This document shows, in pieces, positions 9,510 through 48,167 of a DNA stretch of 48,167 bases. A program made the position numbers and the translations under genes. The notes beneath the pieces were generated by a model. That model ran no database searches, was not told the origin of the DNA, and saw nothing but the letters and a program-made list of their open reading frames with translations. The stretch is from the IMG/VR virus record IMGVR_UViG_2721755721_000005; one strand, written 5' to 3'. This DNA comes from a virus. Its lineage: Duplodnaviria; Heunggongvirae; Uroviricota; Caudoviricetes. The first letter of the stretch is position 1. Every line of letters starts with the position of its first letter.

Positions 9510-9560
9510 CTTTTTTCCTTAATGAATTTATGTGTGGTGATAGTATCCAGCTCTAGATAA

Positions 9561-11929: not shown

Positions 11930-12520
11930 TTATAGGAGTTATTGGGTGGGTTAATATAACGTTTATTCACCATCAATCAACCGCAACCTTAATGGTGTTA
12001 TTTTCAACCGCGAACTTCCGCTTCTCGCTCAAAGCGGACTAAAATGTTGGCTTGCGCCGGACTTTGCGTATTTAAATAAGTGCTGGTGGTGACTGGTTGC
12101 TGTGTTCTATTTCTACAGAACAAAATTACAGAAACTATACCCAATAGTTGTATTGAATCACTGACGAGACAGCCTCATATTTATCAGGACAGGTGTACGT
12201 TCTATACAGGAGGTTGCCGTGCTGGTTCTCAAATGTGCGCTGGCTATTGTGGCTGTAATGGCGATTTATTGTCTTGCCATTATTCTTATGGATCGCCTTT
12301 CTGACTGATTTCATATTGGCGAGGTAACGGGAGTTAAGTAGAATGGCTGCGGGTGCTTGAGGCTGTCTGCCTCGGGCATGAACACCAACGGCAGATAGAG
12401 AAAAGCCCCAGTTAACATTACACGTCCTGCAAGACGCTTAACATTAATCTGAGGCCACATCTATACTTTGCATACGTAGATTAGCCTCTTACCGACCAAA
12501 AGGTCAAAGAGAAGCGGGCT

Positions 12521-12676
12521 ATGAAGCAGCAAAAGGCGATGTTAATCGCCCTGATCGTCATCTGTTTAACCGTCATAGTGACGGCGCTGGTAACGAGGAA
12601 AGACCTCTGCGAGGTACGAATCCGAACCGGCCAGACGGAGGTCGCTGTCTTCACAGCTTACGAACCTGAGGAGTAA
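12521..12676 (+). CDS. hokD: Hok/Gef-family type I toxin (HokD/RelF-type), 51 aa
   Basis: Not in the ORF track (under 60 aa). Translation MKQQKAMLIALIVICLTVIVTALVTRKDLCEVRIRTGQTEVAVFTAYEPEE has the Hok pattern: one TM helix plus the conserved RK.LCE.R...EVA.F.AYE periplasmic tail. Confidence 0.85.
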   Translation: MKQQKAMLIALIVICLTVIVTALVTRKDLCEVRIRTGQTEVAVFTAYEPEE

Positions 12677-28349: not shown

Positions 28350-28548
28350 TGCAGGTGGAGAACATGATGTTTCTGAAACAGGGCTCGTTTAATTATGAAA
28401 AGCAGTCCGTGGTGCTCAGTGAGCTGTCCGGGCTGCAGAGAATTGAATATCTGGCGTTTGTTCGTAAGCGTAAACTGACCGCCGTATGTAGCCATCAGAC
28501 GAGAATTGGTAACTTAGACGCCCATCTGATATAGACGGACATCTAAGT

Positions 28549-28974
28549 ATGGAATTACAGGACTGGCGAAAAGAACCTCGTAAAAACTATTCGAATGAAT
28601 TCAAACTTCGTATGGTGGAACTGGCATCACAACCTGGAGCTTGTGTTGCACAGATTGCACGTGAAAATGGCGTCAATGATAATGTTATTTTCAAATGGCT
28701 CAGGCTCTGGCAGAACGAAGGGCGTGTTTCGCGGCGTCTTCCGGTAACGACCTCTTCTGACACTGGCGTTGAATTATTACCTGTAGAAATAACGCCGGAT
28801 GAGCAGAAAGAACCTGTGGCGGCCATTGCGCCGTCTTTATCCACTTCCACTCAGACCAGAGTCAGTGCCAGTTCCTGCAAGGTGGAATTCCGTCACGGTA
28901 ACATGACGCTGGAAAATCCATCGCCAGAGCTGCTCACAGTGTTGATCCGTGAACTGACCGGGAGGGGAAGATGA
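28549..28974 (+). CDS. IS66-family accessory protein TnpA (orf1)
   Basis: 141 aa; first ORF of the IS; HTH-like N-terminus. Confidence 0.8.
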   Translation: MELQDWRKEPRKNYSNEFKLRMVELASQPGACVAQIARENGVNDNVIFKWLRLWQNEGRVSRRLPVTTSSDTGVELLPVEITPDEQKEPVAAIAPSLSTSTQTRVSASSCKVEFRHGNMTLENPSPELLTVLIRELTGRGR

Positions 28975-29321
28975 TCTCACTCCCATCAGGTACCCGTATC
29001 TGGCTCGTTGCCGGCGTTACCGATATGCGTAAATCCTTCAACGGACTGGGAGAACAGGTACAACATGTGCTGAATGATAATCCCTTCTCCGGTCACCTGT
29101 TTATCTTCCGTGGCCGACGGGGTGACACCGTCAAAATTCTTTGGGCTGATGCTGATGGTCTGTGCCTGTTCACCAAACGCCTGGAGGAAGGCCAGTTTAT
29201 CTGGCCTGCGGTACGTGACGGCAAGGTATCCATTACCCGCTCGCAACTGGCAATGCTCCTCGATAAGCTGGACTGGCGTCAGCCAAAAACATCCAGCCGT
29301 AACTCACTGACAATGTTGTAA
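28971..29321 (+). CDS. IS66-family accessory protein TnpB (orf2)
   Basis: 116 aa; ATGA overlap with the tnpA stop; MISLPSGTRIWLVAGVTDMRKSFNGL pattern. Confidence 0.8.
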   Translation: MISLPSGTRIWLVAGVTDMRKSFNGLGEQVQHVLNDNPFSGHLFIFRGRRGDTVKILWADADGLCLFTKRLEEGQFIWPAVRDGKVSITRSQLAMLLDKLDWRQPKTSSRNSLTML

Positions 29322-29351
29322 AAAACTCCTGACCGCATTATAAAAACGGTC

Positions 29352-30965
29352 ATGAGTCAGAAATACCTCATTCGCATCGCAGAGCTGGAAAGGTTGCTCT
29401 CTGAGCAGGCTGAAGCCCTCCGTCAGAAAGACCAGCAACTGAGTCTGGTTGAAGAGACGGAAGCCTTCCTGCGCTCTGCACTGACACGTGCCGAAGAAAA
29501 GATCGAAGAAGATGAACGGGAAATAGAACATCTGCGGGCTCAGATAGAAAAACTGCGCCGGATGCTGTTCGGTACCCGTTCTGAAAAACTGCGTCGTGAA
29601 GTTGAACTGGCTGAGGCTCTGCTGAAACAACGTGAACAGGACAGCGATCGTTACAGTGGGCGGGAAGACGATCCTCAGGTTCCCCGCCAGTTGCGACAGT
29701 CGCGCCATCGTCGTCCGTTACCGGCACACCTTCCCCGTGAAATACACCGCCTGGAGCCAGAAGAAAGCTGTTGCCCGGAGTGTGGCGGTGAGCTGGATTA
29801 TCTGGGGGAAGTCAGCGCTGAACAGCTGGAACTGGTGAGCAGTGCCCTGAAAGTGATCCGCACAGAACGGGTAAAAAAAGCCTGTACAAAATGTGACTGT
29901 ATTGTTGAAGCACCGGCGCCGTCCCGCCCGATAGAGCGTGGTATCGCGGGCCCCGGATTACTTGCCCGCGTGTTAACGGGAAAATACTGCGAACATCTGC
30001 CACTGTATCGTCAGAGTGAAATCTTTGCCCGCCAGGGTGTCGAACTGAGCCGGGCCTTACTCTCCAACTGGGTTGACGCGTGCTGCCAGTTAATGACACC
30101 GGTGAATGATGCCCTGTACCGTTATGTAATGAACACCCGCAAGGTTCACACTGATGACACACCGGTAAAGGTACTGGCACCGGGTCAGAAAAAGGCGAAA
30201 ACAGGGCGTATCTGGACGTATGTCCGGGATGATCGCAATGTGGGTTCGTCATCTCCTCCAGCGGTCTGGTTCGCGTACTCGCCGAACCGGCAGGGGAAAC
30301 ACCCGGAGCAACACCTCCGCCCCTTCCGGGGTATCCTGCAGGCGGATGCGTTCACAGGTTACGACAGGTTGTTCAGTGCAGAACGTGAAGGTGGTGCACT
30401 GACAGAAGTTGCGTGCTGGGCCCATGCCCGGCGAAAAATCCACGATGTATACATCAGCAGCAAAAGTGCGACGGCAGAAGAAGCCCTGAAGCGAATCAGT
30501 GAACTGTACGCCATCGAGGATGAAATACGGGGATTACCGGAGTTAGAGCGTCTTGCCGTCAGGCAGCAGCGAAGCAAAGTGTTACTGACGTCGCTGCATG
30601 AATGGATGGTGGAGAAGAATGGTACGCTGTCGAAAAAATCCAGACTGGGCGAAGCGTTCAGCTATGTACTGAATCAGTGGGATGCCCTCTGTTATTACAG
30701 TGATGACGGTCTGGCGGAGGCGGATAATAATGCTGCGGAAAGAGCGCTTCGTGCAGTCTGTCTCGGAAAGAAAAACTTTATGTTCTTTGGCAGCGATCAC
30801 GGCGGCGAGCGTGGAGCACTGTTGTACGGGCTGATCGGCACCTGCCGTCTGAACGGTATCGATCCGGAAGCGTATCTGCGCCATATCCTGAGCGTACTGC
30901 CGGAATGGCCTTCCAACCGAGTTGATGAACTCCTGCCATGGAACGTAGTACTCACCAATAAATAA
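29352..30965 (+). CDS. IS66-family transposase TnpC (orf3)
   Basis: 537 aa; N-terminal leucine-zipper/coiled coil, CPECGG zinc motif, central DDE-type region. Confidence 0.85.
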   Translation: MSQKYLIRIAELERLLSEQAEALRQKDQQLSLVEETEAFLRSALTRAEEKIEEDEREIEHLRAQIEKLRRMLFGTRSEKLRREVELAEALLKQREQDSDRYSGREDDPQVPRQLRQSRHRRPLPAHLPREIHRLEPEESCCPECGGELDYLGEVSAEQLELVSSALKVIRTERVKKACTKCDCIVEAPAPSRPIERGIAGPGLLARVLTGKYCEHLPLYRQSEIFARQGVELSRALLSNWVDACCQLMTPVNDALYRYVMNTRKVHTDDTPVKVLAPGQKKAKTGRIWTYVRDDRNVGSSSPPAVWFAYSPNRQGKHPEQHLRPFRGILQADAFTGYDRLFSAEREGGALTEVACWAHARRKIHDVYISSKSATAEEALKRISELYAIEDEIRGLPELERLAVRQQRSKVLLTSLHEWMVEKNGTLSKKSRLGEAFSYVLNQWDALCYYSDDGLAEADNNAAERALRAVCLGKKNFMFFGSDHGGERGALLYGLIGTCRLNGIDPEAYLRHILSVLPEWPSNRVDELLPWNVVLTNK

Positions 30966-31301
30966 GCGTCAATACGGTGCTCCGTTGACGCTTACGTTTG
31001 TTCAGCAGCGAACGGCAAAGTTTGATGCCGAAGAGGGAGAACTGCCGGAGGCTGAACGACAGATTGCTTTTCTGCGGATGGGGATGGATATCAATGCCTG
31101 GCTGGTTTCCCGCTCACTGTGGAATGCGGAACAGTCTCAGGATGTTGAGACGCTTTGCGCATCCGTTATTACAACATGGTCGTATGATGCCCTGGGAGCG
31201 GGGGCGGAGATGGTTCTGTCGCTGAGCGGTATGGGAGCCATTGAGAATGCCGGGGATTTGGAGCATGAGGTGCTGACGCCGGAAAAGTCCTGACGCGGGA
31301 A

Positions 31302-31631
31302 ATGCAGTTTGTCATGCGGCTTGCCCGGGAGTTCCGGCGGGCAGACTGGCGGCGGATGCTGTCGGAAATGTCGGCCACTGAGCTTGGTGAATGGGGCGAT
31401 TATTTCCAGATGCAGAGCTTCAGTGATGTGTGGATGGATGCGCAGTTTGCCTCGCTGAAGGCATTGATCGTGAGAATGGTGTCCGGTAGCAGTGATGCTG
31501 CGGTGGCTGATTTCAGCCTTTTACCGGAAGAGAACGGGATACCGGAGCGAACGGACGAAGAACTGATGCATCTTGGGGAAGGTATTTCCGGAGGTGTGCG
31601 TTATGGACCAGATAGCCAACCTGGTCATTGA
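31302..31631 (+). CDS. T: gpT segment of the G-T frameshift product (-1 frame relative to G)
   Basis: The frame is open from 31269 and is -1 relative to the G frame; it overlaps the G 3' end across GGAAAAG (31281-31287). Same architecture as the lambda G/GT programmed frameshift. Confidence 0.6.
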   Translation: MQFVMRLAREFRRADWRRMLSEMSATELGEWGDYFQMQSFSDVWMDAQFASLKALIVRMVSGSSDAAVADFSLLPEENGIPERTDEELMHLGEGISGGVRYGPDSQPGH

Positions 31632-34600
31632 TTTGGGGATTGATGCGGCAGAGTTTAAAAATGAAATTCCCCGTATCAAAAACCTTCTGAATGGTGCAGC
31701 CAGCGATGCAGAACGGTCTTCTGCCCGTATGCAGCGTTTTATGGAGCGTCAGACTCAGGCCGCCCGGCAGACAATGCAGGCGGCTTCTTCGGCTGCAACA
31801 GCCGCATCCGTCCATGCGCAGACGGTGGAGAAGAGCGCACAGGCTCATGAACGCATGGCCCGCGAGGTGGAGCAAACCCGCCAGCGTATGGAGGCACTGA
31901 GCCAGAAAATGCGCGAGGAACAGGCGCAGGCCATGGCTCTGGCGGAGGCTCAGGATAAAGCGGCTGCCGCGTTTTATCGTCAGATTGACAGTGTGAAACA
32001 GGCCAGTGCGGGACTGCAGGAATTACAGCGTATTCAGCAGCAGATCCGACAGGCCAGAAACAGTGGCGGGATTGGTCAGCAGGATTATCTGGCGCTGATT
32101 TCTGAGGTTACGGCGAAAACCGGTGTTCTTACGCAGGCTGAGGCAGAGGCTACCCGACAGAAAGTGGCGTTTATCCGTCAGCTTAAAGAGCAGGCAACCC
32201 GCCAGAATCTTTCTTCTTCTGAGTTGCTTCGTGCTAAGGCTGCCCAGCTGGGGGTAAGCAGTGCTGCAGAAGTGTATATCCGCAAAATGGAGCAGGCAGG
32301 AAAAGCCACGCATTCGCTGGGTCTGAAAAGTGCAGCGGCCCGCCAGGAGATAGGCGTTCTGATAGGTGAACTGGCTCGCGGCAATTTAGGTGCGCTGAGG
32401 GGATCCGGGATAACGCTGGCTAACCGTGCCGGATGGATAGACACACTGATGTCACCGAAAGGCATGATGCTGGGCGGGGTTATTGGCGGTATTGCCGCGG
32501 CCGTCTATGGTCTGGGTAAAGCCTGGTATGATGGTCAGAAGGAGGGGGAAGAATTTAACCGCCAGTTGTCGCTGACGGGGCATTATGCCGGAGTCACTGC
32601 CGGGCAGCTGTGGACGCTCAGTCGTGCTATTTCCGGGAATGGTATTACGCAACATGCTGCAGCCGGTGCGCTGGCTCAGGTGGTGGGGAGTGGTGCATTT
32701 CGTGGAAACGATATCGGTATGGTGGCGAGAGCTGCCGCACAGATGGAGCGATCGGTTGGCCAGTCGGTCAGCGATACCATAAATCAGTTTAAGCGGCTGA
32801 AGGATGATCCTGTAAATGCCGCGAAGGCTCTGGACAATGAGCTGCATTTTCTTACTGCCACTCAGCTTGAGCAGATACGCGTCCTTGGGGAACAGGGGCG
32901 GTCCAGTGATGCGGCACGGATAGCCATGTCTGCACTGGCAGAGGAAACCGGTCGGCGTACTGCGGATATTGATAATAACCTCAATGCGCTGGGCAGTACG
33001 CTGAAGTATCTGTCTGATTTATGCAGTCGTTTCTGGGATGCGGCCATGAATATTGGTCGTGAAGACTCGCTGGATGAACAGATTTCCGCTTTACAGGAGA
33101 AAGTGTCGCGGGCGAAAAGACTCCCCTGGACGGCATCATCTTCTCAGGTTGAGTACGATCAGCAGCGTCTTAACGAGCTTCAGGAGAAAAAACGCCAGAA
33201 GGATTTGCAGGATGCAAAAGAGCAGGCAGAGCGGAATTATCAGGAGCAACAGAAACGCCGTAATGCTGAAAATGCTGCACTGAACCGGATGAATGAAACG
33301 GAAGCAGCACGACATCAGCGTGAAATTGCGCGTATTAATTCCATGCAGTACGCCGATCAGGCTGTCAGGGATGCGGCGATACAACGTGAAAATGAACGTT
33401 ACGAGAAAGCCCTGGCATCCGGTAAGAAAAAAACACGCGACCCCCGTAATGATGAGGCCACCCGGTTATTGCTGCAGTACAGTCAGCAACAGGCACAGGT
33501 GGAAGGACAGATTGCTGCTGCCAGACAGTCAGCAGGCATTGCCACGGAAAGGATGACAGAAGCGCATAAACAGCTTCTGGCTCTGCAGCAGCGCATCAGC
33601 GACCTGGACGGGAAAAAACTGACGGCAGATGAAAAGAGTGTGCTGGCCCGTAAAGATGAACTGATTCAGGCACTGACGCTGCTGGATGTAAAACAGCAGG
33701 AGCTTCAGAAACAGACGGCACTCAACGAGCTGAAGAAAAAAACAATTCAGCTGACCAGTCAACTGGCTGAAGAAGAGCGCGCTCAGCGTCAGCAACATGA
33801 CCTGGATATCGCCACGGTGGGTATGGGTGATCAGCAGCGGCAGCGATATCAGGTACAACTGAGTCTTCGCCAGAAATACCAGCAACAGCTGGAGCAGTTG
33901 AGGCGGGATAGTGAGCAGAAAGGAACATATAACACGGATGACTACAGAAAGGCCGAGCAGGCGCTGACGGAGAGCCTGAACCGACAACTGAATGAGAATC
34001 GCCGTTACTGGCAACAGCTTGAAGTTGTGCAGGGTAACTGGAAAAACGGAGTCCTGCGTGCATTTCAGGATTTTACCGTGGATGCAGATAATACGGCAGG
34101 AACAGCAGAACAGGTGTTCTCGTCAGCCTTCAGCAACATGGGAAATGGCCTGGCAACTTTTGTCACTACCGGCAAACTCAATTTCAAATCCTTCACCTCT
34201 TCTGTGCTGTCAGATATGGCGAAAATCCTGGCGCAGGCAACCATGATGAAATCGATAAAAGGGATTGGCAGTGTACTGAGATTTGATCTCAGCAGCCTTT
34301 CCCTGAATGCCAATGGGGGGATTTATCAGTCTGCTGATTTGAGTCGTTACAGTGGCACGGTGGTTAACCGTCCGACGTTTTTTGCTTTTGCAAAAGGCGC
34401 GGGTGTGATGGGGGAAGCGGGACCTGAAGCCATTCTGCCACTGCGTCGTGGTGCTGACGGTAAGCTGGGGGTTGTGGCGGATATTGGTGGTTCAGGTATG
34501 GCGATGTTTGCCCCGCAGTACAACATCGAGATCAATAACGATGGCACGAACGGGCAGATAGGTCCGGCTGCCCTGAAGGTGGTTTATGACCTCGGGAAAA

Positions 34601-34668
34601 AAGCGGCAGCGGACTTTATGCAACAGCAGGCCCGTGATGGTGGTCGGTTAAGTGGAGCATATCGGTAA
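31603..34668 (+). CDS. H: Tail tape-measure protein (gpH-like)
   Basis: About 1020 aa; start MDQIANLVIDLGIDAAEF with GGAGGTG SD; C-terminus ...NNDGTNGQIGPAALKVVYD matches the lambda gpH C-terminus. Confidence 0.85.
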   Translation: MDQIANLVIDLGIDAAEFKNEIPRIKNLLNGAASDAERSSARMQRFMERQTQAARQTMQAASSAATAASVHAQTVEKSAQAHERMAREVEQTRQRMEALSQKMREEQAQAMALAEAQDKAAAAFYRQIDSVKQASAGLQELQRIQQQIRQARNSGGIGQQDYLALISEVTAKTGVLTQAEAEATRQKVAFIRQLKEQATRQNLSSSELLRAKAAQLGVSSAAEVYIRKMEQAGKATHSLGLKSAAARQEIGVLIGELARGNLGALRGSGITLANRAGWIDTLMSPKGMMLGGVIGGIAAAVYGLGKAWYDGQKEGEEFNRQLSLTGHYAGVTAGQLWTLSRAISGNGITQHAAAGALAQVVGSGAFRGNDIGMVARAAAQMERSVGQSVSDTINQFKRLKDDPVNAAKALDNELHFLTATQLEQIRVLGEQGRSSDAARIAMSALAEETGRRTADIDNNLNALGSTLKYLSDLCSRFWDAAMNIGREDSLDEQISALQEKVSRAKRLPWTASSSQVEYDQQRLNELQEKKRQKDLQDAKEQAERNYQEQQKRRNAENAALNRMNETEAARHQREIARINSMQYADQAVRDAAIQRENERYEKALASGKKKTRDPRNDEATRLLLQYSQQQAQVEGQIAAARQSAGIATERMTEAHKQLLALQQRISDLDGKKLTADEKSVLARKDELIQALTLLDVKQQELQKQTALNELKKKTIQLTSQLAEEERAQRQQHDLDIATVGMGDQQRQRYQVQLSLRQKYQQQLEQLRRDSEQKGTYNTDDYRKAEQALTESLNRQLNENRRYWQQLEVVQGNWKNGVLRAFQDFTVDADNTAGTAEQVFSSAFSNMGNGLATFVTTGKLNFKSFTSSVLSDMAKILAQATMMKSIKGIGSVLRFDLSSLSLNANGGIYQSADLSRYSGTVVNRPTFFAFAKGAGVMGEAGPEAILPLRRGADGKLGVVADIGGSGMAMFAPQYNIEINNDGTNGQIGPAALKVVYDLGKKAAADFMQQQARDGGRLSGAYR

Positions 34669-34997
34669 TGGAGACGTTTCACTGGAAAGTGCGCCCGGAT
34701 ATGAATGTGGTATCAGAGCCGAAAGTGGTGACAGTGAAGCTGGGCGATGGTTATGAACAGCGTCGTGCGGCGGGACTGAATAACCAGTTGTCGATTTACA
34801 GCGTGACGATACGTGTTCGTAAATGTGAACACCCATCTTTAAAAGCCTTTCTGGAACGGCACGGTGGCGTCCGCGCATTTCAGTGGACGCCACCTTATGA
34901 CTGGAAGCCGATCAGGGTGGTTTGTCGTAAATGGTCGGCAAGCGTGGGGGCGCTGTGGATAACCATAACGGCAGATTTTGAACAGGTCGTGGCATAG
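34668..34997 (+). CDS. M: Minor tail protein M
   Basis: 109 aa; METFHWKV...WTPPYDWKPIRVVCRKWS matches lambda gpM. Confidence 0.85.
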   Translation: METFHWKVRPDMNVVSEPKVVTVKLGDGYEQRRAAGLNNQLSIYSVTIRVRKCEHPSLKAFLERHGGVRAFQWTPPYDWKPIRVVCRKWSASVGALWITITADFEQVVA

Positions 34998-35006
34998 GAG
35001 GCTCTG

Positions 35007-35705
35007 ATGCAGGATATTCCACAGGAAACACATCATGAGACGACACGCCTCACTCAGTCAGCCCAGGTGGTGCTCTGGGAAATCGATCTGACAGAGGTCG
35101 GTGGTGAACGTTATTTTTTCTGTAATGAGCAGAACGAAAAAGGTGAGCCGGTTACCTGGCAGGGGCGGCAGTATCAGGCATACCCCATTCAGGGGACGGG
35201 ATTTGAACTGAATGGCAAGGGCAGTGCTGCCCGTCCGACACTGACGGTTTCTAACCTGCACGGCATGGTCACCGGGATGGCGGAAGACCTGCAGAGTCTG
35301 GTCGGCGGAACGGTGGTCCGGCGTAAGGTTTACGCCCGTTTTCTGGATGCGGTGAACTTCGTCAACGGAAACAGTGACGCCGATCCGGAGCAGGAGGTGA
35401 TTAGCCGCTGGCGCATCGAGCAGTGCAGCGAACTGAGCGCGGTGAGTGCCTCTTTTGTACTGTCCACGCCGACGGAAACGGACGGTGCCGTTTTTCCGGG
35501 ACGTATCATGCTGGCCAACACCTGCACCTGGACCTATCGCGGTGACGAGTGCGGTTATCACGGTCCGGCGGTCGCGGATGAATATGATCAGCCGACGTCC
35601 GATATCACGAAGGATAAATGCAGCAAATGCCTGAGCGGCTGTAAGTTTCGCAATAACGTCGGCAACTTTGGCGGCTTCCTTTCCATTAACAAACTTTCGC
35701 AGTGA
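35007..35705 (+). CDS. L: Minor tail protein L
   Basis: 232 aa; lambda gpL-like size and position. Confidence 0.85.
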   Translation: MQDIPQETHHETTRLTQSAQVVLWEIDLTEVGGERYFFCNEQNEKGEPVTWQGRQYQAYPIQGTGFELNGKGSAARPTLTVSNLHGMVTGMAEDLQSLVGGTVVRRKVYARFLDAVNFVNGNSDADPEQEVISRWRIEQCSELSAVSASFVLSTPTETDGAVFPGRIMLANTCTWTYRGDECGYHGPAVADEYDQPTSDITKDKCSKCLSGCKFRNNVGNFGGFLSINKLSQ

Positions 35706-36454
35706 ATCCCATGACAGAGACAGAATCAGCGATTCTGGCGCATGCCCGGCGATGTGCGCCAGCGGAGTCGTGCGGCTTCGTGGTGAGAACACCGGAGGGG
35801 GAAAGATATTTTCCCTGCGTGAATATCTCTGGTGAGCCGGAGGCGTATTTCCGGATGTCGCCGGAGGACTGGCTGAGTGCAGAAATGCAGGGAGAGATTG
35901 TGGCGCTGGTCCACAGCCACCCCGGTGGTCTGCCCTGGCTGAGTGAGGCCGACCGGCGGCTGCAGGTGCAGAGTGATTTGCCGTGGTGGCTGGTCTGCCG
36001 GGGGACGATTCATAAGTTCCGCTGTGTGCCGCATCTCACCGGGCGGCGCTTTGAGCACGGTGTGACGGACTGTTACACACTGTTCCGGGATGCTTATCAT
36101 CTGGCGGGGATTGAGATGCCGGACTTTTATCGTGAGGATGACTGGTGGCGTAACGGCCAGAATCTCTATCTGGATAATCTGGAGGCGACGGGGCTGTATC
36201 AGGTGCCGTTGTCAGCGGCACAGCCGGGCGATGTGCTGCTGTGCTGTTTTGGTTCATCAGTGCCGAATCACGCCGCAATTTACTGCGGCGACGGCGAGCT
36301 GCTGCACCATATTCCTGAACAACTGAGCAAACGAGAGAGGTACACCGACAAATGGCAGCGACGCACACACTCCCTCTGGCGTCACCGGGCATGGCACGCA
36401 TCTGCCTTTACGGGGATTTGCAACGATTTGGTCGCCGTATCGACCTTCGTGTGA
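35702..36454 (+). CDS. K: Tail tip assembly protein K (JAB/MPN plus NlpC/P60-like)
   Basis: HSHPGG (JAB-type) and CYTLFRDAYH (NlpC/P60-type Cys) motifs; overlaps L and I. Confidence 0.8.
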   Translation: MNPMTETESAILAHARRCAPAESCGFVVRTPEGERYFPCVNISGEPEAYFRMSPEDWLSAEMQGEIVALVHSHPGGLPWLSEADRRLQVQSDLPWWLVCRGTIHKFRCVPHLTGRRFEHGVTDCYTLFRDAYHLAGIEMPDFYREDDWWRNGQNLYLDNLEATGLYQVPLSAAQPGDVLLCCFGSSVPNHAAIYCGDGELLHHIPEQLSKRERYTDKWQRRTHSLWRHRAWHASAFTGICNDLVAVSTFV

Positions 36455-36999
36455 AAACGGGGGCTGAAGCCATCCGGGCACTGGCCACACAGCTCCCGGT
36501 GTTTCGTCAGAAACTGAATGAGGGCTGGTATCAGGTGCGCATTGCCGGGCGTGATGCAGGCGAAAATGAATTATCTGCCCGTCTTAATGAGCCGCTGGCA
36601 AATGGTGCCGTGATCCACATCGTGCCGCGTCTGGCGGGAGCTAAAAGTGGCGGTGTGTTTCAGGTGGTGCTTGGGGCGGCGCTGATTGCGGTGGCATGGT
36701 GGAACCCTGTGGGCTGGCTGGGGGCCGCGGCTGTATCGGGCATGTATGCGGCAGGGGCCAGTATGATCCTGGGCGGAGTGGCGCAGATGCTGGCACCGAA
36801 AGCCAGGACGCCCACGGCAGCCAGTACAGATAACGGCAAACAGAACACCTATTTCTCCTCACTGGATAACATGGTTGCCCAGGGCAATGTTCTGCCGGTT
36901 CTGTACGGTGAAATGCGCGTGGGGTCACGCGTGGTTTCTCAGGAAATCAGCACGGCAGACGAAGGGGATGGTGGGCAGGTTGTGGTGATTGGTCGCTGA
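36352..36999 (+). CDS. I: Tail assembly protein I
   Basis: MAATHTLPLASPGMARICLYGDLQRFGRRIDLRV... and C-terminal DNGKQNTYFSSLDNMVAQGNVLPVLYGEMRVGSRVVSQEISTADEGDGGQVVVIGR match lambda gpI. Confidence 0.85.
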   Translation: MAATHTLPLASPGMARICLYGDLQRFGRRIDLRVKTGAEAIRALATQLPVFRQKLNEGWYQVRIAGRDAGENELSARLNEPLANGAVIHIVPRLAGAKSGGVFQVVLGAALIAVAWWNPVGWLGAAAVSGMYAAGASMILGGVAQMLAPKARTPTAASTDNGKQNTYFSSLDNMVAQGNVLPVLYGEMRVGSRVVSQEISTADEGDGGQVVVIGR

Positions 37000-37059
37000 T
37001 GCAAAATGTTTTATGTGAAACCGCCTCCGGGCGGTTTTATCGTTTATGGAGCATGACGA

Positions 37060-40000
37060 ATGGGTAAAGGCAGCAGTAAGGGGCATACCCCGCGCGAAGC
37101 GAAGGACAACCTGAAGTCCACGCAGCTGCTGAGTGTGATCGATGCCATCAGCGAAGGGCCGGTTGAAGGTCCGGTGGATGGATTAAAAAGCGTGCTGCTG
37201 AACAGTACGCCGGTGCTGGACAGTGAGGGGAATACCAATATATCCGGCGTCACGGTGGTGTTCCGGGCCGGTGAGCAGGAGCAGACACCGCCGGAGGGAT
37301 TTGAATCCTCCGGTTCCGAGACGGTGCTGGGTACGGAAGTGAAATACGACACGCCGATTACCCGGACCATCACGTCGGCAAACATCGACCGTCTGCGCTT
37401 TACCTTCGGTGTGCAGGCACTGGTGGAAACCACCTCAAAGGGGGACCGGAATCCGTCGGAAGTCCGCCTGCTGGTTCAGATACAGCGTAACGGTGGCTGG
37501 GTGACGGAAAAAGACATCACCATTAAAGGCAAAACCACCTCACAGTATCTGGCCTCGGTGGTGGTGGATAACCTGCCGCCGCGCCCGTTTAATATCCGGA
37601 TGCGCAGAATGACGCCGGACAGCACCACAGACCAGTTGCAGAACAAAACGCTCTGGTCGTCATACACCGAAATTATCGATGTGAAACAGGGCTACCCGAA
37701 CACGGCACTGGTCGGCGTACAGGTGGATTCGGAGCAGTTCGGCAGCCAGCAGGTGAGCCGTAATTATCATCTTCGCGGGCGCATTCTGCAGGTGCCGTCG
37801 AACTATAACCCGCAGACGCGACAATACAGCGGTATTTGGGACGGAACGTTAAAACCAGCATACAGCAACAACATGGCCTGGTGTCTGTGGGATATGCTGA
37901 CCCACCCGCGCTACGGCATGGGAAAACGTCTTGGTGCGGCGGATGTGGACAAATGGGCGCTGTATGTCATCGGCCAGTACTGCGACCAGTCAGTGCCGGA
38001 CGGCTTTGGCGGCACGGAGCCGCGCATCACCTGTAATGCGTACCTGACCACACAGCGCAAGGCGTGGGATGTGCTCAGTGATTTCTGCTCGGCGATGCGC
38101 TGTATGCCGGTATGGAACGGGCAGACGCTGACGTTCGTGCAGGACCGACCGTCGGATAAGGTGTGGGCCTATAACCGCAGTAATGTGGTGATGCCGGATG
38201 ATGGCGCGCCGTTCCGCTACAGTTTCAGCGCCCTGAAAGACCGCCATAATGCCGTTGAGGTGAACTGGATTGACCCGGATAACGGCTGGGAGACGGCGAC
38301 AGAGCTTGTTGAAGATACGCAGGCCATTGCCCGTTACGGTCGTAACGTCACGAAGATGGATGCCTTTGGCTGTACCAGCCGGGGGCAGGCGCACCGCGCC
38401 GGGCTGTGGCTGATTAAAACGGAACTGCTGGAAACGCAGACCGTGGACTTCAGCGTGGGTGCGGAAGGGCTTCGCCATGTACCGGGGGATGTCATTGAAA
38501 TCTGCGATGATGACTATGCGGGTATCAGCACCGGCGGGCGCGTGCTGGCGGTGAACAGCCAGACCCGGACGCTGACGCTCGACCGTGAAATCACGCTGCC
38601 ATCCTCCGGTACCACGCTGATAAGCCTGGTTGACGGTCAGGGTAATCCGGTCAGCGTGGAGGTCCAGTCCGTCACCGACGGCGTGAAGGTGAAAGTGAGC
38701 CGTGTTCCTGACGGCGTTGCAGAATACAGCGTGTGGGGGCTGAAGCTGCCGACGCTGCGCCAGCGCCTGTTCCGCTGCGTGAGTATCCGTGAGAACGACG
38801 ACGGCACGTATGCCATCACCGCCGTGCAGCATGTACCGGAAAAAGAAGCCATCGTGGATAACGGGGCGCACTTTGACGGCGACCAGAGCGGCACGGTGAA
38901 TGGTGTCACGCCGCCAGCGGTGCAGCATCTGACCGCAGAAGTCACCGCAGACAGCGGGGAATACCAGGTGCTGGCCCGCTGGGACACGCCGAAGGTGGTG
39001 AAGGGCGTGAGCTTCCTGCTTCGCCTGACCGTGGCAGCGGATGACGGCCGTGAGCGGCTGGTCAGCACGGCCCGGACGACGGAAACCACTTACCGCTTCA
39101 CACAACTGGCTCTGGGGAACTACAGGCTGACAGTCCGGGCAGTAAATGCGTGGGGGCAGCAGGGCGATCCGGCGTCGGTATCGTTCCGGATTGCCGCACC
39201 GGCAGCGCCGTCGCGGATTGAGCTGACGCCGGGCTATTTTCAGATAACCGCCACGCCGCATCTTGCGGTTTATGACCCGACGGTACAGTTTGAGTTCTGG
39301 TTCTCGGAAAAACGGATTGCGGATATCAGGCAGGTTGAAACCAGCGCGCGTTATCTTGGTACGGCACTGTACTGGATAGCCGCCAGTATCAATATCAAAC
39401 CGGGCCATGATTATTATTTTTACGTTCGCAGTGTGAACACCGTTGGCAAATCGGCATTCGTGGAGGCTGTCGGTCAGCCGGGTGATGATGCATCAGGCTA
39501 TCTGGATTTTTTCAAAGGCGAGATAGGGAAAACCCATCTGGCTCAGGAGCTGTGGACGCAGATTGATAACGGTCAGCTTGCGCCTGACCTGACTGAAATC
39601 AGGACGTCCATAACGGATGTCAGCAATGAAATAACACAGACCGTCAATAAGAAACTGGAAGACCAGAGTGCAGCGATCCAGCAGATACAGAAGGTTCAGG
39701 TTGATACAAATAATAACCTGAACAGCATGTGGGCAGTGAAGCTGCAGCAGATGCAGGACGGACGCCTTTATATTGCGGGTATCGGTGCCGGTATTGAGAA
39801 CACCCCTGACGGCATGCAGAGTCAGGTGCTGCTGGCGGCGGACAGGATTGCGATGATTAATCCTGCAAATGGCAACACAAAACCGATGTTTGTTGGTCAG
39901 GGTGATCAGATATTCATGAATGACGTGTTCCTGAAACGCCTGACGGCTCCCACCATTACCAGCGGTGGAAATCCGCCGGCATTTTCCCTGACACCGGACG

Positions 40001-40557
40001 GAAAGCTGACCGCTAAAAATGCGGATATCAGTGGCAGTGTGAATGCGAACGCCGGGACGCTCAACAATGTCACGGTAAATGAAAACTGTACGATTAAGGG
40101 CATGCTGGAGGCGACTCAGGTCAGAGGTGACTTCGTTAAAGCTGTATCCAAATCATTCCCGAAACAGGCTGGTACGTGGGGTAATACGGAAACACCAAAC
40201 GGGACGGTTACAGTCACCATCAGCGATGATCATAACTTTGACCGTCAAATCATTATTCCGCCCATTATCTTTAACGGAATAGCGTATAGCGATCCGGGAA
40301 GTGGTAATAACCCGGGAGGTACAAGATACACGGGTTATGGTTTTGAAGTTCGCAAAAACGGCGTATTAATCGCATCCAGAGAAACTAAAGGGGCCATTCC
40401 CGGTAGTTACAGTGCAGTTATTGATATGCCGAGTGGCAGGGGAAGCGTCACTCTGGAGTTTAAGATTTTCCAGAAAGGCAATCAGGGGGCAGGCAATATC
40501 ACCGACTGTACGGTGATTGTGACCAAAAAAGCCGCTTCCGGCATCAGTATTCGTTGA
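37060..40557 (+). CDS. J: Central tail fibre / host-specificity protein J
   Basis: 1165 aa; lambda gpJ-like size and position. Confidence 0.9.
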
Positions 40558-40576
40558 AATATTTATAACCCAATAA

Positions 40577-40606
40577 AGGGCGTCAGGAATGACGCCTTTT
40601 TTATTG
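40577..40606 (+). terminator. Intrinsic terminator after J
   Basis: GGCGTCA-ggaa-TGACGCC followed by TTTTTTATT. Confidence 0.6.
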
Positions 40607-40626
40607 CAGAAAAGCGAGAGGTAATT

Positions 40627-41226
40627 ATGCGTAAAGTTTGTGCAGCAATTTTGTCCGCAGCCATTTGTCTGGCCGTATCCGGTGCGCCTGCATGGGCGTC
40701 TGAACATCAGTCCACGCTGAGCGCGGGGTATCTTCATGCCCGGACGAACGCTCCCGGTAGCGATAATCTTAACGGGATTAACGTGAAATACCGTTATGAA
40801 TTCACGGACACGCTGGGGCTGGTGACGTCATTCAGCTATGCAGGAGACAGGAATCGCCAGATTACCCGTTACAGCGATACCCGCTGGCATGAAGATTCCG
40901 TGCGTAACCGCTGGTTCAGCGTAATGGCGGGGCCGTCTGTGCGCGTGAATGAATGGTTCAGCGCGTATGCGATGGCGGGTGTGGCTTACAGCCGTGTGTC
41001 GACTTTCTCCGGGGATTATCTCCGCGTAACTGACAACAAGGGGAAAAAGCACGATGTGCTGACCGGAAGTGATGACGGTCGCCACAGCAACACGTCTCTG
41101 GCGTGGGGGGCTGGCGTGCAGTTTAACCCGACCGAATCCGTGGCCATTGATATTGCTTATGAAGGCTCCGGCAGTGGTGACTGGCGCACTGACGGTTTCA
41201 TCGTGGGTGTCGGTTATAAATTCTGA
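40627..41226 (+). CDS. lom: Outer-membrane protein Lom (Ail/Lom family)
   Basis: Signal peptide [24 protein letters not shown]; beta-barrel-like alternating pattern; C-terminal GYKF; between J and stf as in lambda. Confidence 0.85.
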
Positions 41227-41252
41227 TTAGCCAGGTAACACAGTGTTATGAC

Positions 41253-41280
41253 AGCCCGCCGGTTCAGGCGGGCTTTTTTG
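41253..41280 (+). terminator. Intrinsic terminator after lom
   Basis: AGCCCGCC-ggttca-GGCGGGCT followed by TTTTTT. Confidence 0.6.
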
Positions 41281-41290
41281 TGGGGTGAAT

Positions 41291-44200
41291 ATGGCAGTAA
41301 AGATTTCAGGTGTACTGAAAGACGGCACAGGAAAACCGGTACAGAACTGCACAATCCAGCTGAAAGCAAAACGTAACAGCACCACGGTGGTGGTGAACAC
41401 GCTGGCCTCAGAAAATCCGGATGAAGCCGGGCGTTACAGCATGGACGTTGAGTACGGGCAGTACAGCGTTATTCTGTTGGTGGAGGGATTCCCGCCGTCA
41501 CATGCCGGGACCATCACCGTGTATGAAGATTCCCGACCCGGTACGCTGAATGATTTTCTCGGTGCCATGACGGAGGATGATGCCCGTCCTGAGGCACTGC
41601 GCCGTTTTGAACTGATGGTGGAAGAGGTGGCGCGTAACGCGTCCGCGGTGGCACAGAACACGGCAGCCGCGAAGAAGTCAGCCAGCGATGCCAGCACATC
41701 AGCCCGTGAGGCGGCAACCCATGCGACTGATGCTGCAGGCTCAGCACGTGCAGCCAGCACGTCAGCCGGACAGGCCGCTTCGTCGGCTCAGTCAGCGTCT
41801 TCCAGCGCAGGAACGGCATCAACAAAGGCCACTGAAGCATCGAAAAGTGCTGCTGCTGCAGAGTCCTCAAAAAGCGCGGCAGCTACCAGTGCCGCTGCGG
41901 CGAAAACGTCAGAAACGAATGCGGCAGCGTCACAACAATCAGCAGCCACTTCTGCATCCGCCGCGACCACGAAGGCGTCAGAAGCTGCCACCTCAGCCCG
42001 GGATGCGGCGGCCTCAAAAGAGGCAGCGAAATCATCAGAAACGAACGCATCCTCGAGCGCCAGTAGCGCAGCTTCCTCGGCAACAGCGGCAGGAAATTCC
42101 GCGAAGGCGGCAAAAACGTCAGAGACGAACGCCAGGTCTTCTGAAACGGCAGCGGGACAGAGCGCCTCGGCTGCGGCAGGCTCAAAAACAGCGGCTGCGT
42201 CGTCTGCCAGTGCCGCGTCAACAAGTGCCGGGCAGGCCTCAGCCAGTGCCACCGCCGCCGGAAAATCGGCAGAAAGCGCTGCATCGTCCGCTTCAACAGC
42301 TACAACGAAGGCTGGCGAAGCCACTGAACAGGCCAGCGCAGCAGCGAGGTCTGCATCCGCAGCGAAGACATCCGAAACGAACGCGAAAGCGTCGGAAACC
42401 AGCGCAGAATCCTCAAAAATGGCAGCTGCATCGTCCGCCAGTTCGGCGGCGTCATCGGCATCATCTGCGTCTGCTTCAAAAGATGAGGCGAGCAGACAGG
42501 CATCAGCAGCGAAAGGCAGCGCCACGACAGCATCCACGAAGGCGACAGAGGCAGCTGGCAGTGCGACGGCGGCATCTCAGAGCAAAACTACTGCTGAATC
42601 CGCTGCGACCCGTGCGGAAGCTGCTGCTGATCGTGCTGAAGAGATTGCCGGTGCAGTTGCGATGGAAGACGCAAGCCTTACAACTAAAGGTGTTGTGAAA
42701 CTTAGCAGTGCTGTTGATAGCACCAGTGAATCGCTGGCCGCAACGCCAAAAGCAGTTAAAGCAGCCAATGACAATGCGAATAGCAGGGTGCCATCTAACC
42801 GAAAAGTTAACGGAAAAGCACTGACTGCGGATATAACATTAACGCCGAAAGATATTGGTACTTTAAATTCAGTAACGATGTCTTTCTCTGGCGGGGCTGG
42901 GTGGTTCAAACTGGCTACGGTTACCATGCCACAAGCGAGTTCCATCGTTTACATCGCATTGATTGGTGGCGCTGGTTACAACGTCGGTTCCCCACATCAG
43001 GCAGGCATTTCAGAACTGGTTCTACGAGCAGGCAATGGAAACCCCAAAGGAATTACCGGGGCTTTGTGGAAGCGTACAGCCGTCGGATTAACGAATTTCG
43101 CCTGGATCAACACATCCGGCGATACATATGATATTTACGTTGAGATTGGCAATTATGCGACGAGTGTAAATATCCATTGGGATTGTACTGCAAATGCGTC
43201 AGTTTCTGTTTATACCTCGCCAACATATTCAGCGAGTAAGCCTTCCAGCGTTACCTATGGTGTTGTTTATACGATGTATAGCTCACATCAGAAACCTACA
43301 CCATCAGATATTGGAGCACTGCCAACAACCGGAGGAACAGTTTCAGGTCCGTTGTCTGTTACAGGTGGATTAACTGGTTCATTGAATGGTAATGCAAGTA
43401 CAGCCACGAAATTGCAGACGGCAAGATCTATCGGTGGAGTTGTTTTCGACGGTTCTGCAAATATTAACCTTCCAGGTGTAAACACTACGGGTAATCAGAA
43501 CACCACTGGTAATGCTGCAACTGCTACAAAACTCCAGACTGCAAGAAAAATATCCGGTGTTCCATTTGATGGTTCCAAAGATATTACTTTAACCGCCGCG
43601 CATGTGGCTGCTTTTGCCAGAAGGGCAACGGATACATATGCCGATGCGGATGGTGGCGTTCCCTGGAATGCCGAATCAGGCGCTTACAATGTCACCCGCT
43701 CTGGCGACAGCTATATTCTGGTTAACTTCTATACCGGAGTCGGAAGTTGCCGGACCCTGCAGATGAAGGCGCATTACAGAAATGGTGGTCTGTTCTACCG
43801 TTCTTCAAGAGACGGTTATGGTTTTGAGGAAGGCTGGGCAGAAGTTTATACCTCGAAAAATCTTCCACCAGAAAGCTACCCAGTCGGCGCACCAATCCCG
43901 TGGCCATCAGATACCGTTCCGTCTGGTTATGCCCTGATGCAGGGGCAGACTTTTGACAAATCTGCTTACCCGAAACTTGCAGCCGCTTATCCGTCAGGCG
44001 TGATCCCTGATATGCGTGGCTGGACGATTAAGGGCAAACCTGCCAGTGGTCGGGCCGTATTGTCTCAGGAACAGGACGGCATTAAATCGCACACCCACAG
44101 CGCCAGCGCATCCAGTACGGATTTGGGGACGAAAACCACATCGTCGTTTGATTACGGAACCAAATCCACGAATAACACCGGGGCGCATACCCATAGTATT

Positions 44201-44569
44201 AGCGGGACCGCAAATAGTGCCGGTGCGCACCAACACAAGAGTTCCGGTGCATTTGGTGGCACGAACACGAGCATTTTCCCTAATGGTTATACCGCGATTT
44301 CAAATCTAAGCGCGGGGATTATGAGCACAACAAGCGGTAGTGGCCAGACTCGTAATGCAGGGAAGACATCATCAGATGGTGCTCATACCCACTCGCTGTC
44401 CGGCACTGCTGCAAGCGCAGGCGCACATGCACATACTGTCGGTATTGGTGCTCATACGCACTCCGTTGCGATTGGCTCACATGGACACACCATCACCGTT
44501 AACGCTGCTGGTAACGCGGAAAACACCGTCAAAAACATCGCATTTAACTATATTGTGAGGCTTGCATAA
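41291..44569 (+). CDS. stf: Side tail fibre protein Stf
   Basis: [26 protein letters not shown]..., a long Ala/Ser/Thr-rich repeat region, and C-terminal GAHTHS-type repeats ending [11 protein letters not shown]; lambda Stf-like. Confidence 0.85.
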
Positions 44570-45150
44570 TGGCATTCAGAATGAGTGAACAAGCACGGAC
44601 CATAAAAATTTATAATCTGCTGGCCGGAACTAATGAATTTATTGGTGAAGGTGACGCATATATTCCGCCTCATACAGGTCTGCCAGCAAACAGTACCGAT
44701 ATTGCACCACCAGATATTCCGGCAGGCTTCGTGGCTGTTTTCAACAGTGATGAGGCATCGTGGCATCTCGTTGAAGACCATCGGGGTAAAACGGTTTATG
44801 ACGTGGCTTCCGGCGACGCGTTATTTATTTCTGAACTCGGTCCGTTACCGGAAAATGTTACCTGGTTGTCGCCGGGAGGGGAATATCAGAAGTGGAACGG
44901 CACAGCCTGGGTGAAGGATACGGAAGCAGAAAAACTGTTCCGGATCCGGGAGGCAGAAGAAACAAAAAACAGCCTGATGCAGGTAGCCAGTGAGCATATT
45001 GCGCCACTTCAGGATGCTGTAGATCTGGAAATCGCAACGGAGGAAGAAATCTCGTTGCTGGAAGCCTGGAAGAAGTATCGGGTGTTGCTGAACCGTGTTA
45101 ATACAACAACTGCACCGGATATTGAATGGCCAGTAGCACCTATAGGGTAA
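44569..45150 (+). CDS. tfa: Tail fibre assembly protein Tfa
   Basis: [43 protein letters not shown]... lambda Tfa-like; ATG overlaps the stf stop. Confidence 0.9.
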
Positions 45151-45738
45151 ATTCGTAATGATTACCTAAATACGTTATTCTTTTGTTCAAAAAGTGATTT
45201 TGCTATAGGTAGGGAGTATGTTCTTGGATTAAGAATAAAAATCGCCATGAAAGAGCTTCATGGCGAGTACATAAACGTACAAAATATGATGAAAGTAGAG
45301 TGGCGTAAGCCACTATATTAAGATATGACAATAGCGAAGAAAAGTAAATAAAATTTTATGGGCGTTTAATTGTTAATTATAAAAACTAGAGTGCCCGATA
45401 TTGTTTATCTTGCTTTAAAATAATGTACTCAAACCAAATTTTTGAGCTAAAAGCTCAAATAATATAAATGCAATGATAATGTTTAATAAGACAATTAGCT
45501 TGCTTTGTATTTTCATTTCGGAATACTGTTAAGTAACTTTGATGACACTAACAATAGATCGGAATTTTCTTAGAGTCAATGGTCACTGTTTTTGCTTGCA
45601 AAGCAAATGTTTTTGGTGGTTATAAGTTTTCTTAATATAGTCACCTATGCAACTTGTTCCGTGTGGAGATCAAAGGTTAAAATTTAATGCGAAGATGGAA
45701 TTATAATATATTTTTTTATAATTAATTTAACCTTAACA

Positions 45739-45838
45739 TCGTTGCTGTCGGCATGGAAGAAATATCGGGTCTTGCTGATGTCGTGTTGGCACTTCCTTAG
45801 TGCGGTTATCGAATGGCCAGCTGTACCTGTGGGGTAAA
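45739..45838 (+). repeat. Degenerate duplicate of the tfa 3' end (remnant 1)
   Basis: TCGTTGCTG...GGAAGAAATATCGGGTCTTGCTGA...ATCGAATGGCCAGCTGTACCTGTGGGGTAA aligns with tfa 45050-45150 (..KKYRVLL...IEWP.VP.G*). Confidence 0.6.
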
Positions 45839-46502
45839 AACTTTATATGGGTGCTATTTTTATAATAGCTGGTAAAAACTGGCCGAACTGAAATTCACTG
45901 TTGATAAAAAAGATGTGTTTGAGTGTATGTCATTGTTTTCTTAATGGAATCCACTAGAATGCAGCGAATTTAAGAAGGTGGGTTTTTATTGGAATATAAA
46001 CTACAATAATGCTCAACTCGTTCGTAGAATTGTTTTTTCTTATTTTTGGGAATGCTAACCATTATATGCATTATGGGGGCGATACTTCCTGATAATTTAC
46101 ATGATGCATACATTGAAGCAATAAATTCAATATCATTGTCATCAAAGTTAAAGCTTTCTCCGTCCATTTCAATTCCTTATGTGTTTGGCACAACTGATGC
46201 TGTATCCCATGAGAATTTATGCAAGTTGTTATGTTTGATTTGATATTGCAATGATAATTGTAGCTAATTGTTTTCAATTGAGTGAAAGTTTATTTCGAGT
46301 GATTAAGTCGAAAAAAAAGATTTCTCACGGTTAGTAAGCGTATTAGGTTAGTATTCAGATATGAATGGTATTAATGACTAAATTTTCAATCATATATGGA
46401 TTTTTATGCTGATGAAGATGTTTTATTTGGCGATTCGTCAAGCATCTTCACTTAAGTAATCGTATATTTTAAGAGTGTAAAAGAGAAAGGGACAACGTTG
46501 CT

Positions 46503-46595
46503 CGCACTCTGGATTAAATATAGGGTGTTGTTAAACTGCGTTGATACATAATTGTACCGGATATTGAGTGGTCTGAAGTCCCAGTCATTAAGTAA
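46503..46595 (+). repeat. Degenerate duplicate of the tfa 3' end (remnant 2)
   Basis: CTGGATTAAATATAGGGTGTTGTTAAACTGCGTTGATACA...ACCGGATATTGAGTGG aligns with the same tfa 3' segment. Confidence 0.5.
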
Positions 46596-46883
46596 TCGTT
46601 TCGTGATATGCCGCAGAAACGTTGTATGCAATAACGTTCTGCGGTTGGCTGATGCACTTTCGAGAGTGTATTGAATAATTTCAAGCCGTTATTGTTTTTA
46701 CGCGTAACACCATGAAAAGACTGCTTATCTGTTGGGGTGTTTTTTGGGGCATATATGGGACAGAAATAGGCCACAGGTAGATAGTAAGATCGAACTCAGG
46801 ATGCTTTTGAAAAAATGTAACTATCTGAAAAAACCTAGAAAGCGCCAAGGAAACCACAGAATGAGAAAAAACATCTGTGAATT

Positions 46884-48167
46884 ATGGATTTCCAGTTATA
46901 TTCGCTCGGCGCAGCGTTAGTGTTTCATGAAATATTTTTTCCTGAATCATCAACGGCAATGGCGTTAATTTTGGCAATGGGAACCTACGGTGCAGGTTAT
47001 GTGGCGCGTATTGTCGGAGCATTTATTTTCGGCAAAATGGGCGACAGAATAGGGCGTAAAAAAGTGCTCTTTATTACCATCACCATGATGGGGATCTGTA
47101 CCACCTTAATTGGTGTGTTACCGACCTATGCACAGATTGGTGTTTTTGCCCCCATCTTGCTGGTGACGCTGCGTATTATTCAGGGGTTGGGTGCAGGTGC
47201 GGAAATTTCCGGTGCCGGTACGATGCTGGCGGAATATGCACCAAAAGGTAAGCGCGGAATTATCTCCTCATTTGTAGCTATGGGAACTAACTGCGGAACC
47301 TTGAGCGCAACGGCAATCTGGGCCTTTATGTTCTTCATTCTCAGTAAAGAGGAACTGCTGGCGTGGGGATGGCGTATACCGTTCCTGGCGAGCGTTGTCG
47401 TGATGGTCTTTGCTATCTGGTTACGTATGAATCTGAAAGAAAGCCCGGTCTTTGAGAAGGTTAATGACAGCAACCAACCCACAGCAAAACCTGCACCTGC
47501 TGGTAGCATGTTCCAGAGCAAATCCTTCTGGCTGGCAACAGGGCTGCGTTTTGGTCAGGCGGGTAACTCCGGGTTAATTCAGACTTTCCTTGCAGGCTAT
47601 TTAGTGCAGACGTTATTGTTTAACAAAGCAATTCCAACAGATGCATTGATGATTAGTTCGATTCTCGGCTTTATGACCATTCCGTTCCTTGGTTGGTTAT
47701 CCGATAAAATTGGTCGCCGGATCCCGTATATTATTATGAATACCTCCGCGATTGTGCTGGCATGGCCAATGCTTTCTATCATTGTAGATAAAAGCTATGC
47801 CCCGAGCACCATTATGGTTGCACTGATTGTGATTCATAACTGTGCGGTGCTGGGATTATTTGCTCTGGAAAACATTACCATGGCAGAAATGTTCGGCTGT
47901 AAAAACCGCTTTACCCGGATGGCCATTTCTAAAGAAATTGGTGGTCTTATCGCTTCCGGTTTTGGTCCTATCCTGGCGGGTATTTTCTGCACCATGACGG
48001 AATCCTGGTATCCGATCGCCATTATGATCATGGCATATTCAGTGATTGGTTTAATCTCTGCGCTGAAAATGCCAGAAGTGAAAGACCGTGATTTAAGTGC
48101 GCTGGAAGACGCTGCGGAAGATCAACCGCGTGTTGTAAGAGCTGTGCAACCTTCCAGAAGTCTGTAA
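46884..48167 (+). CDS. ydfJ: MFS transporter, metabolite:H+ symporter family (ShiA/ProP-like), apparently 5'-truncated host gene (ydfJ-like)
   Basis: 427-aa ORF starting at the position of the conserved WYDF motif (MDFQLYSLGAALVF...); the ~25 residues that normally precede it are missing and an in-frame stop lies 2 codons upstream. Symbol assigned from recalled K-12 synteny (ydfJ beside the Qin tail-fibre end); this is a recollection, not a search. Confidence 0.8.
   Translation: MDFQLYSLGAALVFHEIFFPESSTAMALILAMGTYGAGYVARIVGAFIFGKMGDRIGRKKVLFITITMMGICTTLIGVLPTYAQIGVFAPILLVTLRIIQGLGAGAEISGAGTMLAEYAPKGKRGIISSFVAMGTNCGTLSATAIWAFMFFILSKEELLAWGWRIPFLASVVVMVFAIWLRMNLKESPVFEKVNDSNQPTAKPAPAGSMFQSKSFWLATGLRFGQAGNSGLIQTFLAGYLVQTLLFNKAIPTDALMISSILGFMTIPFLGWLSDKIGRRIPYIIMNTSAIVLAWPMLSIIVDKSYAPSTIMVALIVIHNCAVLGLFALENITMAEMFGCKNRFTRMAISKEIGGLIASGFGPILAGIFCTMTESWYPIAIMIMAYSVIGLISALKMPEVKDRDLSALEDAAEDQPRVVRAVQPSRSL

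Follow-up and report, generated by a model that had tools for sequence, protein, structure and literature searches.

[quoted passage not shown]

The DNA analysed here is a single stretch of 48,167 nucleotides, referred to throughout as the window. Its right end carries a transporter gene that lacks its 5′ end and directly follows sequence assigned to the phage side of a prophage junction. The features at this end were as follows.

44569–45150, + strand: tfa, the last recognisable phage gene before attR
46625–46877, strand not given: P arm of attP, the phage side of attR (from megablast break points, alignment and contiguity with the P′ arm in free phages)
46878–46895, strand not given: att core in attR, TGAATTATGGATTTCCAG, 18 bp (from the four-way alignment)
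46878–46880, + strand: in-frame TGA stop upstream of ydfJ′, separated from its ATG by a single ATT codon
46884–48167, + strand: ydfJ′, 427 aa, codons 29–455 plus stop of an MHS-family MFS transporter gene, 5′-truncated

The prophage genes of the window include those for terminase, portal, protease-capsid, tail tube, tape measure, J, lom, tail fibre and tfa. Between tfa and the P arm lies 1.7 kb of AT-rich sequence (29–37% GC). The 3′ end of tfa occurs in three direct copies, namely the true gene end (45052–45151) and two decayed copies (45739–45838 and 46495–46578), spaced ∼690–760 bp apart in this 29–37% GC stretch without convincing genes. The decayed copies are 85% and 73% identical over the first 40 nt, and the second copy 81% over the last 36.

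Protein comparison showed that the window ORF, whose final base is also the final base of the window, corresponds to residues 29–455 of the 455-aa YdfJ found in strains with an empty site. It is ydfJ without the first 28 codons, and has been separated from both its original start codon and rspAB. Pfam identified MFS_1 and Sugar_tr in the product. On TIGR00883, the NCBIfam profile for metabolite:H+ symporters, the window ORF scored 453.5 bits, above the family cutoff of 443.45, and full-length YdfJ scored 462.9 bits. Residues 23–418 of the full-length protein aligned to profile positions 1–400, whereas residue 1 of the window ORF aligned to position 7, leaving the N-terminus of the family core incomplete. 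The two alignments place the start of the window ORF a few residues inside the family core (GTALEF/MDFQLYS, the slash marking the start). Likewise, the match to MFS_1 began at profile position 2 in full-length YdfJ but only at position 33 in the truncated form. The original prediction, made from the sequence alone, held that the transporter ORF starts at a conserved region without the usual preceding residues and that an in-frame stop lies two codons upstream of its ATG; both points were borne out, by the 28 missing residues and by the TGA at 46878–46880. ydfJ′ is a gene fragment and not a full member of the MHS family (TIGR00883).

A shorter but functional YdfJ could in principle be made from Met29, using a phage-side or cryptic promoter, in which case the gene would be modified rather than inactivated. 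The ORF is intact over 427 codons, exceeds the TIGR00883 cutoff, and keeps its ATG in all lineages. However, the 28 missing residues include the start of both the family core and the MFS_1 domain, no Shine-Dalgarno-like sequence was found within 30 nt upstream of the ATG, and sigma-70-like sites were not detected on the + strand from 45354 to 47100. The total number of sigma-70-like sites in this search of the P arm for a ydfJ′ promoter was below the shuffle expectation. The identical sequence of strain 1943 is a pseudogene in the PGAP annotation ('missing N-terminus'), as is the ydfJ remnant in the K-12 derivative J53 and in the other ydfJ-prophage strains compared. Frequent acquisition and loss of prophages at the ydfJ site would account just as well for the intact ORF, and a functional product from Met29 seems unlikely. 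The preferred reading is that ydfJ has been left as a promoterless, 5′-truncated remnant that has presumably lost its function, since integration would separate codons 29–455 from the start codon and rspAB with no replacement promoter or Shine-Dalgarno sequence seen.

The only ORF to cross the junction (46732–46920), considered as a fusion that might supply a new N-terminus, lies in another frame and stops inside ydfJ. A gathering-score Rfam scan of the whole window identified no structured RNA in 45110–48167.

Empty sites and the four att sequences

To place the junction among other genomes, window positions 46500–47300 were used as a megablast query against 5426 complete E. coli genomes. Matches were found in 5236 of them, and fell into discrete classes: full length, or starting at query positions 112–131 (K-12-like), 246 (O157/O26-like) or 379, the last equivalent to window position 46878. 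Empty attB sites were inspected in detail in three strains from this last class, JL05, TW01221 and SX48 (n = 3). All three are prophage-free, with the gene order rspA-rspB-ydfJ-ydfI and a ydfJ of 1368 bp that starts 57 bp after rspB. Homology between the window and prophage-free strains thus begins at 46878. A 301-bp attB probe was uninterrupted in 2009 of the 5426 genomes and interrupted at the core in the majority of the others. The same-nucleotide junction recurs in thousands of genomes, and so is not a chance feature.

Occupancy of ydfJ in ∼60% of E. coli, together with the preserved ORF, is the basis for a further reading, which we regard as very unlikely. Here, the prophage would act as a reversible switch, uncoupling ydfJ-ydfI from rspAB and silencing substrate uptake until excision restored it, or else YdfJ′ from Met29 would have altered transport; in the present strain, the arrangement would be frozen by the insertion sequence (IS) in int. 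The rspAB-ydfJ-ydfI cluster is presumably linked to L-gulonate/D-mannonate catabolism; a literature search on its physiological role gave nothing usable.

A search of the whole window, allowing up to three mismatches, found neither the 5′ end of ydfJ nor a second copy of the core, which places attL outside the window. As the window ends short of its own attL, this site was taken from the near-identical prophage of strain 1943, which matches window positions 53–28463 at 99.99% and 30995–48167 at 99.83% identity, with one IS fewer. In strain 1943, the interval between rspB and the integrase gene contains ydfJ codons 1–31 followed by phage DNA (P′ arm, int), so that the 84 nt of ydfJ missing from the window sit beside rspB at attL. 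The four att sites were then aligned, using attR from the window, attL from strain 1943, attB from JL05, TW01221 and SX48, and attP from the phages mEp460_ev081 and Tritos.

attP: CTGTGAATT-ATGGATTTCAAGAGTCAT
attB: GCTTGAATTTATGGATTTCCAGTTATAT
attL: GCTTGAATTTATGGATTTCAAGAGTCAT
attR: CTGTGAATT-ATGGATTTCCAGTTATAT

All four sites have a common core, with the flanks recombined as B-O-P′ and P-O-B′. An 11-bp block, TTATGGATTTC (46882–46892), is identical across attP, attB, attL and attR, and the alignment places strand exchange inside it. Around this block is a wider, imperfect att of 18/19 bp, TGAATT[T]ATGGATTTC[C/A]AG, equivalent to window 46878–46895. On the phage side, the core has one T fewer than attB (TGAATT-ATG versus TTGAATTTATG), and it is this missing T that brings a TGA in frame before Met29. 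The core agrees with the 18- or 19-bp att published for ydfJ prophages, which was obtained by aligning a PCR-derived attP with attL, attR and attB (PMC8112680, S7 Fig). To the left of the window, the core expected at attL is TTGAATTTATGGATTTC, and an attB restored by excision would read GCTTGAATTTATGGATTTCCAGTT.

Two other origins for the truncation were weighed against these results. An assembly or sequencing artefact, with a frameshift hiding the true N-terminus in another frame upstream, might be suspected from the 1-nt difference in length between the core and attB. Every attR and attP copy, taken from genomes independent of one another, shows this same difference, and no similarity to ydfJ codons 1–26 was found upstream of 46878 in any frame; such an error is exceedingly improbable. 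Deletion or illegitimate recombination beside the prophage, for example mediated by an IS, might instead be proposed from the two IS66-family elements that the prophage carries. Both elements, however, are tens of kb from the junction, the 84 nt missing from the window are kept at attL in lysogens, the same-nucleotide junction occurs in unrelated prophage lineages, and free phage genomes contain an attP with this same core. There is next to no likelihood that the truncation arose in this way.

Site-specific integration in ydfJ is the reading that we favour. Judged by these alignments, 46878–46895 is very probably the core of attR in a lambdoid prophage with the Qin/mEp460 type of integration. 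A lambda-like tyrosine integrase would have recombined the phage attP with the chromosomal attB in ydfJ codons 26–31, the exchange taking place inside the 11-bp identity, although the exact cleavage positions are inferred. Codons 1–28 and the rspAB context would have been left at attL, and codons 29–455 placed at attR, behind the phage P arm. The one-T-shorter phage core would then put the TGA in frame upstream of Met29.

The original prediction had placed the prophage inside the 5′ end of the transporter gene, with attR within about 46840–46900, and the ydfJ sequence beside rspB in strain 1943 and the core at 46878–46895 agree with it on both counts. A search of the flanks against prophage-free E. 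coli, which it had recommended, defined attB and the core repeat in JL05, TW01221 and SX48, and the matching repeat at attL was located in strain 1943. It had also named two findings that would count against integration. One, an intact N-terminus in another frame, was not found upstream of 46878; the other, a gene that is full length from this same start in prophage-free strains, was not the case, these strains encoding the 455-aa YdfJ instead.

P arm, candidate arm-type sites and related elements

Megablast matches broke off at query positions 126 and 246, which delimited the P arm. Its homology with K-12 Qin and mEp460-type elements begins at ∼46625, and that with O26/O157-type ydfJ prophages at 46745, so that the last ∼140 bp before the core are common to all the lineages compared and ∼250 bp are common to the K-12-type elements. 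In both length and location, this shared stretch fits a P arm. Two blocks within it were invariant.

46745–46762, + strand: TGGGGCATATATGGGACA, 18 nt, at −139 from the core, containing TGGGGCA
46823–46834, strand not given: ATCTGAAAAAAC, from the alignment of ydfJ-prophage P arms

An attP was reconstructed from the window P arm, the core and the strain 1943 P′ arm. TGGGGCA occurs in it at −139, +68 and +78, the P arm having one copy and the P′ arm a tandem pair, and a TGGGGTG variant occurs at −152. In the 48-kb window the motif is rarer than expected, with three copies against 8.2 in shuffled sequence. These data suggest that the TGGGGCA blocks are candidate arm-type integrase-binding sites; the copies in the P′ arm lie within the int coding sequence, and their conservation is therefore not independent evidence. 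A match to the IHF consensus was observed at +24 of the P′ arm.

The reconstructed attP was found as contiguous sequence in four phage genome records, HannyBb, PhiR42_1, Tritos and mEp460_ev081, with 100% coverage. The P arm, core and P′ arm are the same in these phages, at 94–95% identity over 409 nt, and in all four attP directly adjoins int (1281 nt), xis and exo, in the order of the window prophage type. The comparison covered the attP-int-xis module. The integrase gene is uninterrupted in the free phage records, unlike that of the window, and in mEp460 tfa is separated from attP by pin and a ydfK-like gene, both absent from the window.

The junction TGAATT/ATGGATTTC/CAG was also identified in K-12 J53 Qin, JNEC-KY174 and O26 RM10386. 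In CU37RT-2 the junction is at the same place with one core substitution (ATGGACTTC), and P-arm homology is common to all these prophages. K-12 Qin (Kim) has the same attB, junction nucleotide and attR as the window element, a P arm homologous from ∼250 bp upstream (∼94% identity), and the same flank order of rspB, prophage and ydfJ′-ydfI. The early-region genes dicB, ydfD, ydfA, hokD/sok, rem and DicF are also common to both. The statement in the original prediction that the arrangement matches that of Qin and ydfJ in K-12 was therefore correct, J53 having an identical junction and a homologous P arm. Its further statement, that the prophage is far more complete than Qin, held for gene content but has to be qualified for gene integrity. 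At ∼20.5 kb, the Qin of J53 has neither xis nor most of exo, and of the head and tail genes it keeps only nohA, a tail-fibre fragment and tfaQ. The window element exceeds 46.9 kb and has a full morphogenesis set, but its int and gpG are each split by an IS. The means of inactivation also differ, with IS66-family elements in int and gpG of the window element, and IS2 plus deletions in Qin. Beside attR, Qin carries pinQ, ydfK and ynfT, which the window element does not.

The ydfJ prophages of STEC O26, O157 and O145 (PPydfJ; Nakamura et al. 2021, PMC8112680) occupy the same locus, with an 18/19-bp att, and an attP PCR has been published for O26 PPydfJ-R (PMC8112680). In O26 RM10386 the core is identical to that of the window, and the two P arms are homologous over their last ∼140 bp. 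The STEC elements carry T3SS effector genes (nleC) and a DinI-like gene beside attR, and the elements themselves often form tandem clusters; the window shows none of these features. In O26 RM10386, nleC and the DinI-like gene were observed at 1–1508 of the extracted locus. The sitABCD iron/manganese transporter genes were observed beside attR at the same att site in CU37RT-2 (1–1320 of the extracted locus). Sequence immediately internal to attR is a hot spot for cargo genes.

The window type resembles lambda in its prophage order (attL-int-xis-exo … J-stf-tfa-attR), in its tyrosine integrase with a separate arm-binding domain, in its short identity core, and in its long P arm (at least 140 bp conserved) and short P′ arm abutting int. 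It differs from lambda in its arm-binding domain, Arm-DNA-bind_2 (PF12167), and its DUF1233 excisionase. Lambda also uses an intergenic site between gal and bio, with a 15-bp core, whereas the window element lies inside a coding sequence and truncates ydfJ.

The junction is thus the Qin-type ydfJ integration site, ordinary and already described, and its identification here is a correct rediscovery. The integration site, the att sequence and the effect on ydfJ have all been published (PMC6379469, PMC8112680), with Qin reported to be integrated at the 5′ end of ydfJ with loss of the promoter and 28 codons (PMC6379469). For annotation, the right boundary of the prophage is fixed at 46878–46895, with the crossover predicted inside 46882–46892; ydfJ here should be recorded as a 5′-truncated remnant and not as a short transporter gene. 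The element is placed in the Qin/mEp460 integration group.

Interrupted genes and other features of the prophage

Two genes of the prophage are interrupted, one at its left end and one among the tail genes. The relevant features were as follows.

1–53, strand not given: terminal 53 nt of an ISCro1-like IS66-family element, interrupting the integrase gene at window 52/53
53–608, − strand: N-terminal 185 codons of the tyrosine integrase gene (Arm-DNA-bind_2 and SAM-like domain)
643–894, − strand: xis, excisionase gene (DUF1233 family, from Pfam on the strain 1943 copy with coordinates transferred)
28464–30995, + strand: second IS66-family element, with tnpA, tnpB and tnpC (Pfam), an 8-bp target duplication GTTTGTTC and GTAAGCGT termini
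28549–28974: tnpA of the second element
28971–29321: tnpB of the second element
29352–30965: tnpC of the second element

The integrase of the window is 100% identical to the 426-aa Int of strain 1943 up to residue 185, where identity stops. Strain 1943 Int has Arm-DNA-bind_2 at residues 4–67 and the Phage_integrase catalytic domain at 201–392, and adjoins an 83-aa DUF1233 excisionase. Positions 1–53 of the window are non-integrase sequence, identical to the end of ISCro1-like IS66 elements, and the catalytic half of the integrase lies beyond the insertion, outside the window. The architecture of the IS-interrupted left end was inferred from strain EC45, in which a different IS66-family member occupies nearly the same position in int. 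None of the complete genomes searched matched window 1–400 as a single piece at 100%, strains 1943 and EC45 being the closest stand-ins. In TUM1880 and RS571, ISCro1-like elements are inserted elsewhere in an integrase gene of the same kind. Since the integrase gene is split, autonomous excision is unlikely, and the prophage in this strain is probably locked in place.

The second IS66-family element splits the tail assembly chaperone gene gpG after codon 32, making tail assembly unlikely. It is absent from the otherwise near-identical prophage of strain 1943, which has no IS elements. Judged by its sequence, then, the prophage is predicted to be defective despite a gene set that looks complete, int and gpG each being split by an IS66-family element. 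Because of these two interruptions, attempts to induce the prophage of this strain and obtain its excision would probably be unsuccessful unless Int were provided in trans.

Several matches at the Rfam gathering score were observed elsewhere in the window. IS009 (229 bits; 44912–45110, + strand) lies inside the tfa coding sequence, the sok antitoxin RNA (12351–12526, + strand) lies beside hokD, and the DicF sRNA was found at 4083–4134 (− strand); all three are typical features of the Qin family. A segment resembling a ColE1-type plasmid replication origin was also found inside the prophage, at 9543–10353. It contains a match to RNAI (9559–9661, − strand) at 68.4 bits against a gathering score of 47, and over 5000 small ColE1-like plasmids match the segment at 68–78% identity. 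In the phage collection there are few matches, including phiX174, Listeria phage and lambda records; these are weak and partial, and look like cloning-vector sequence.
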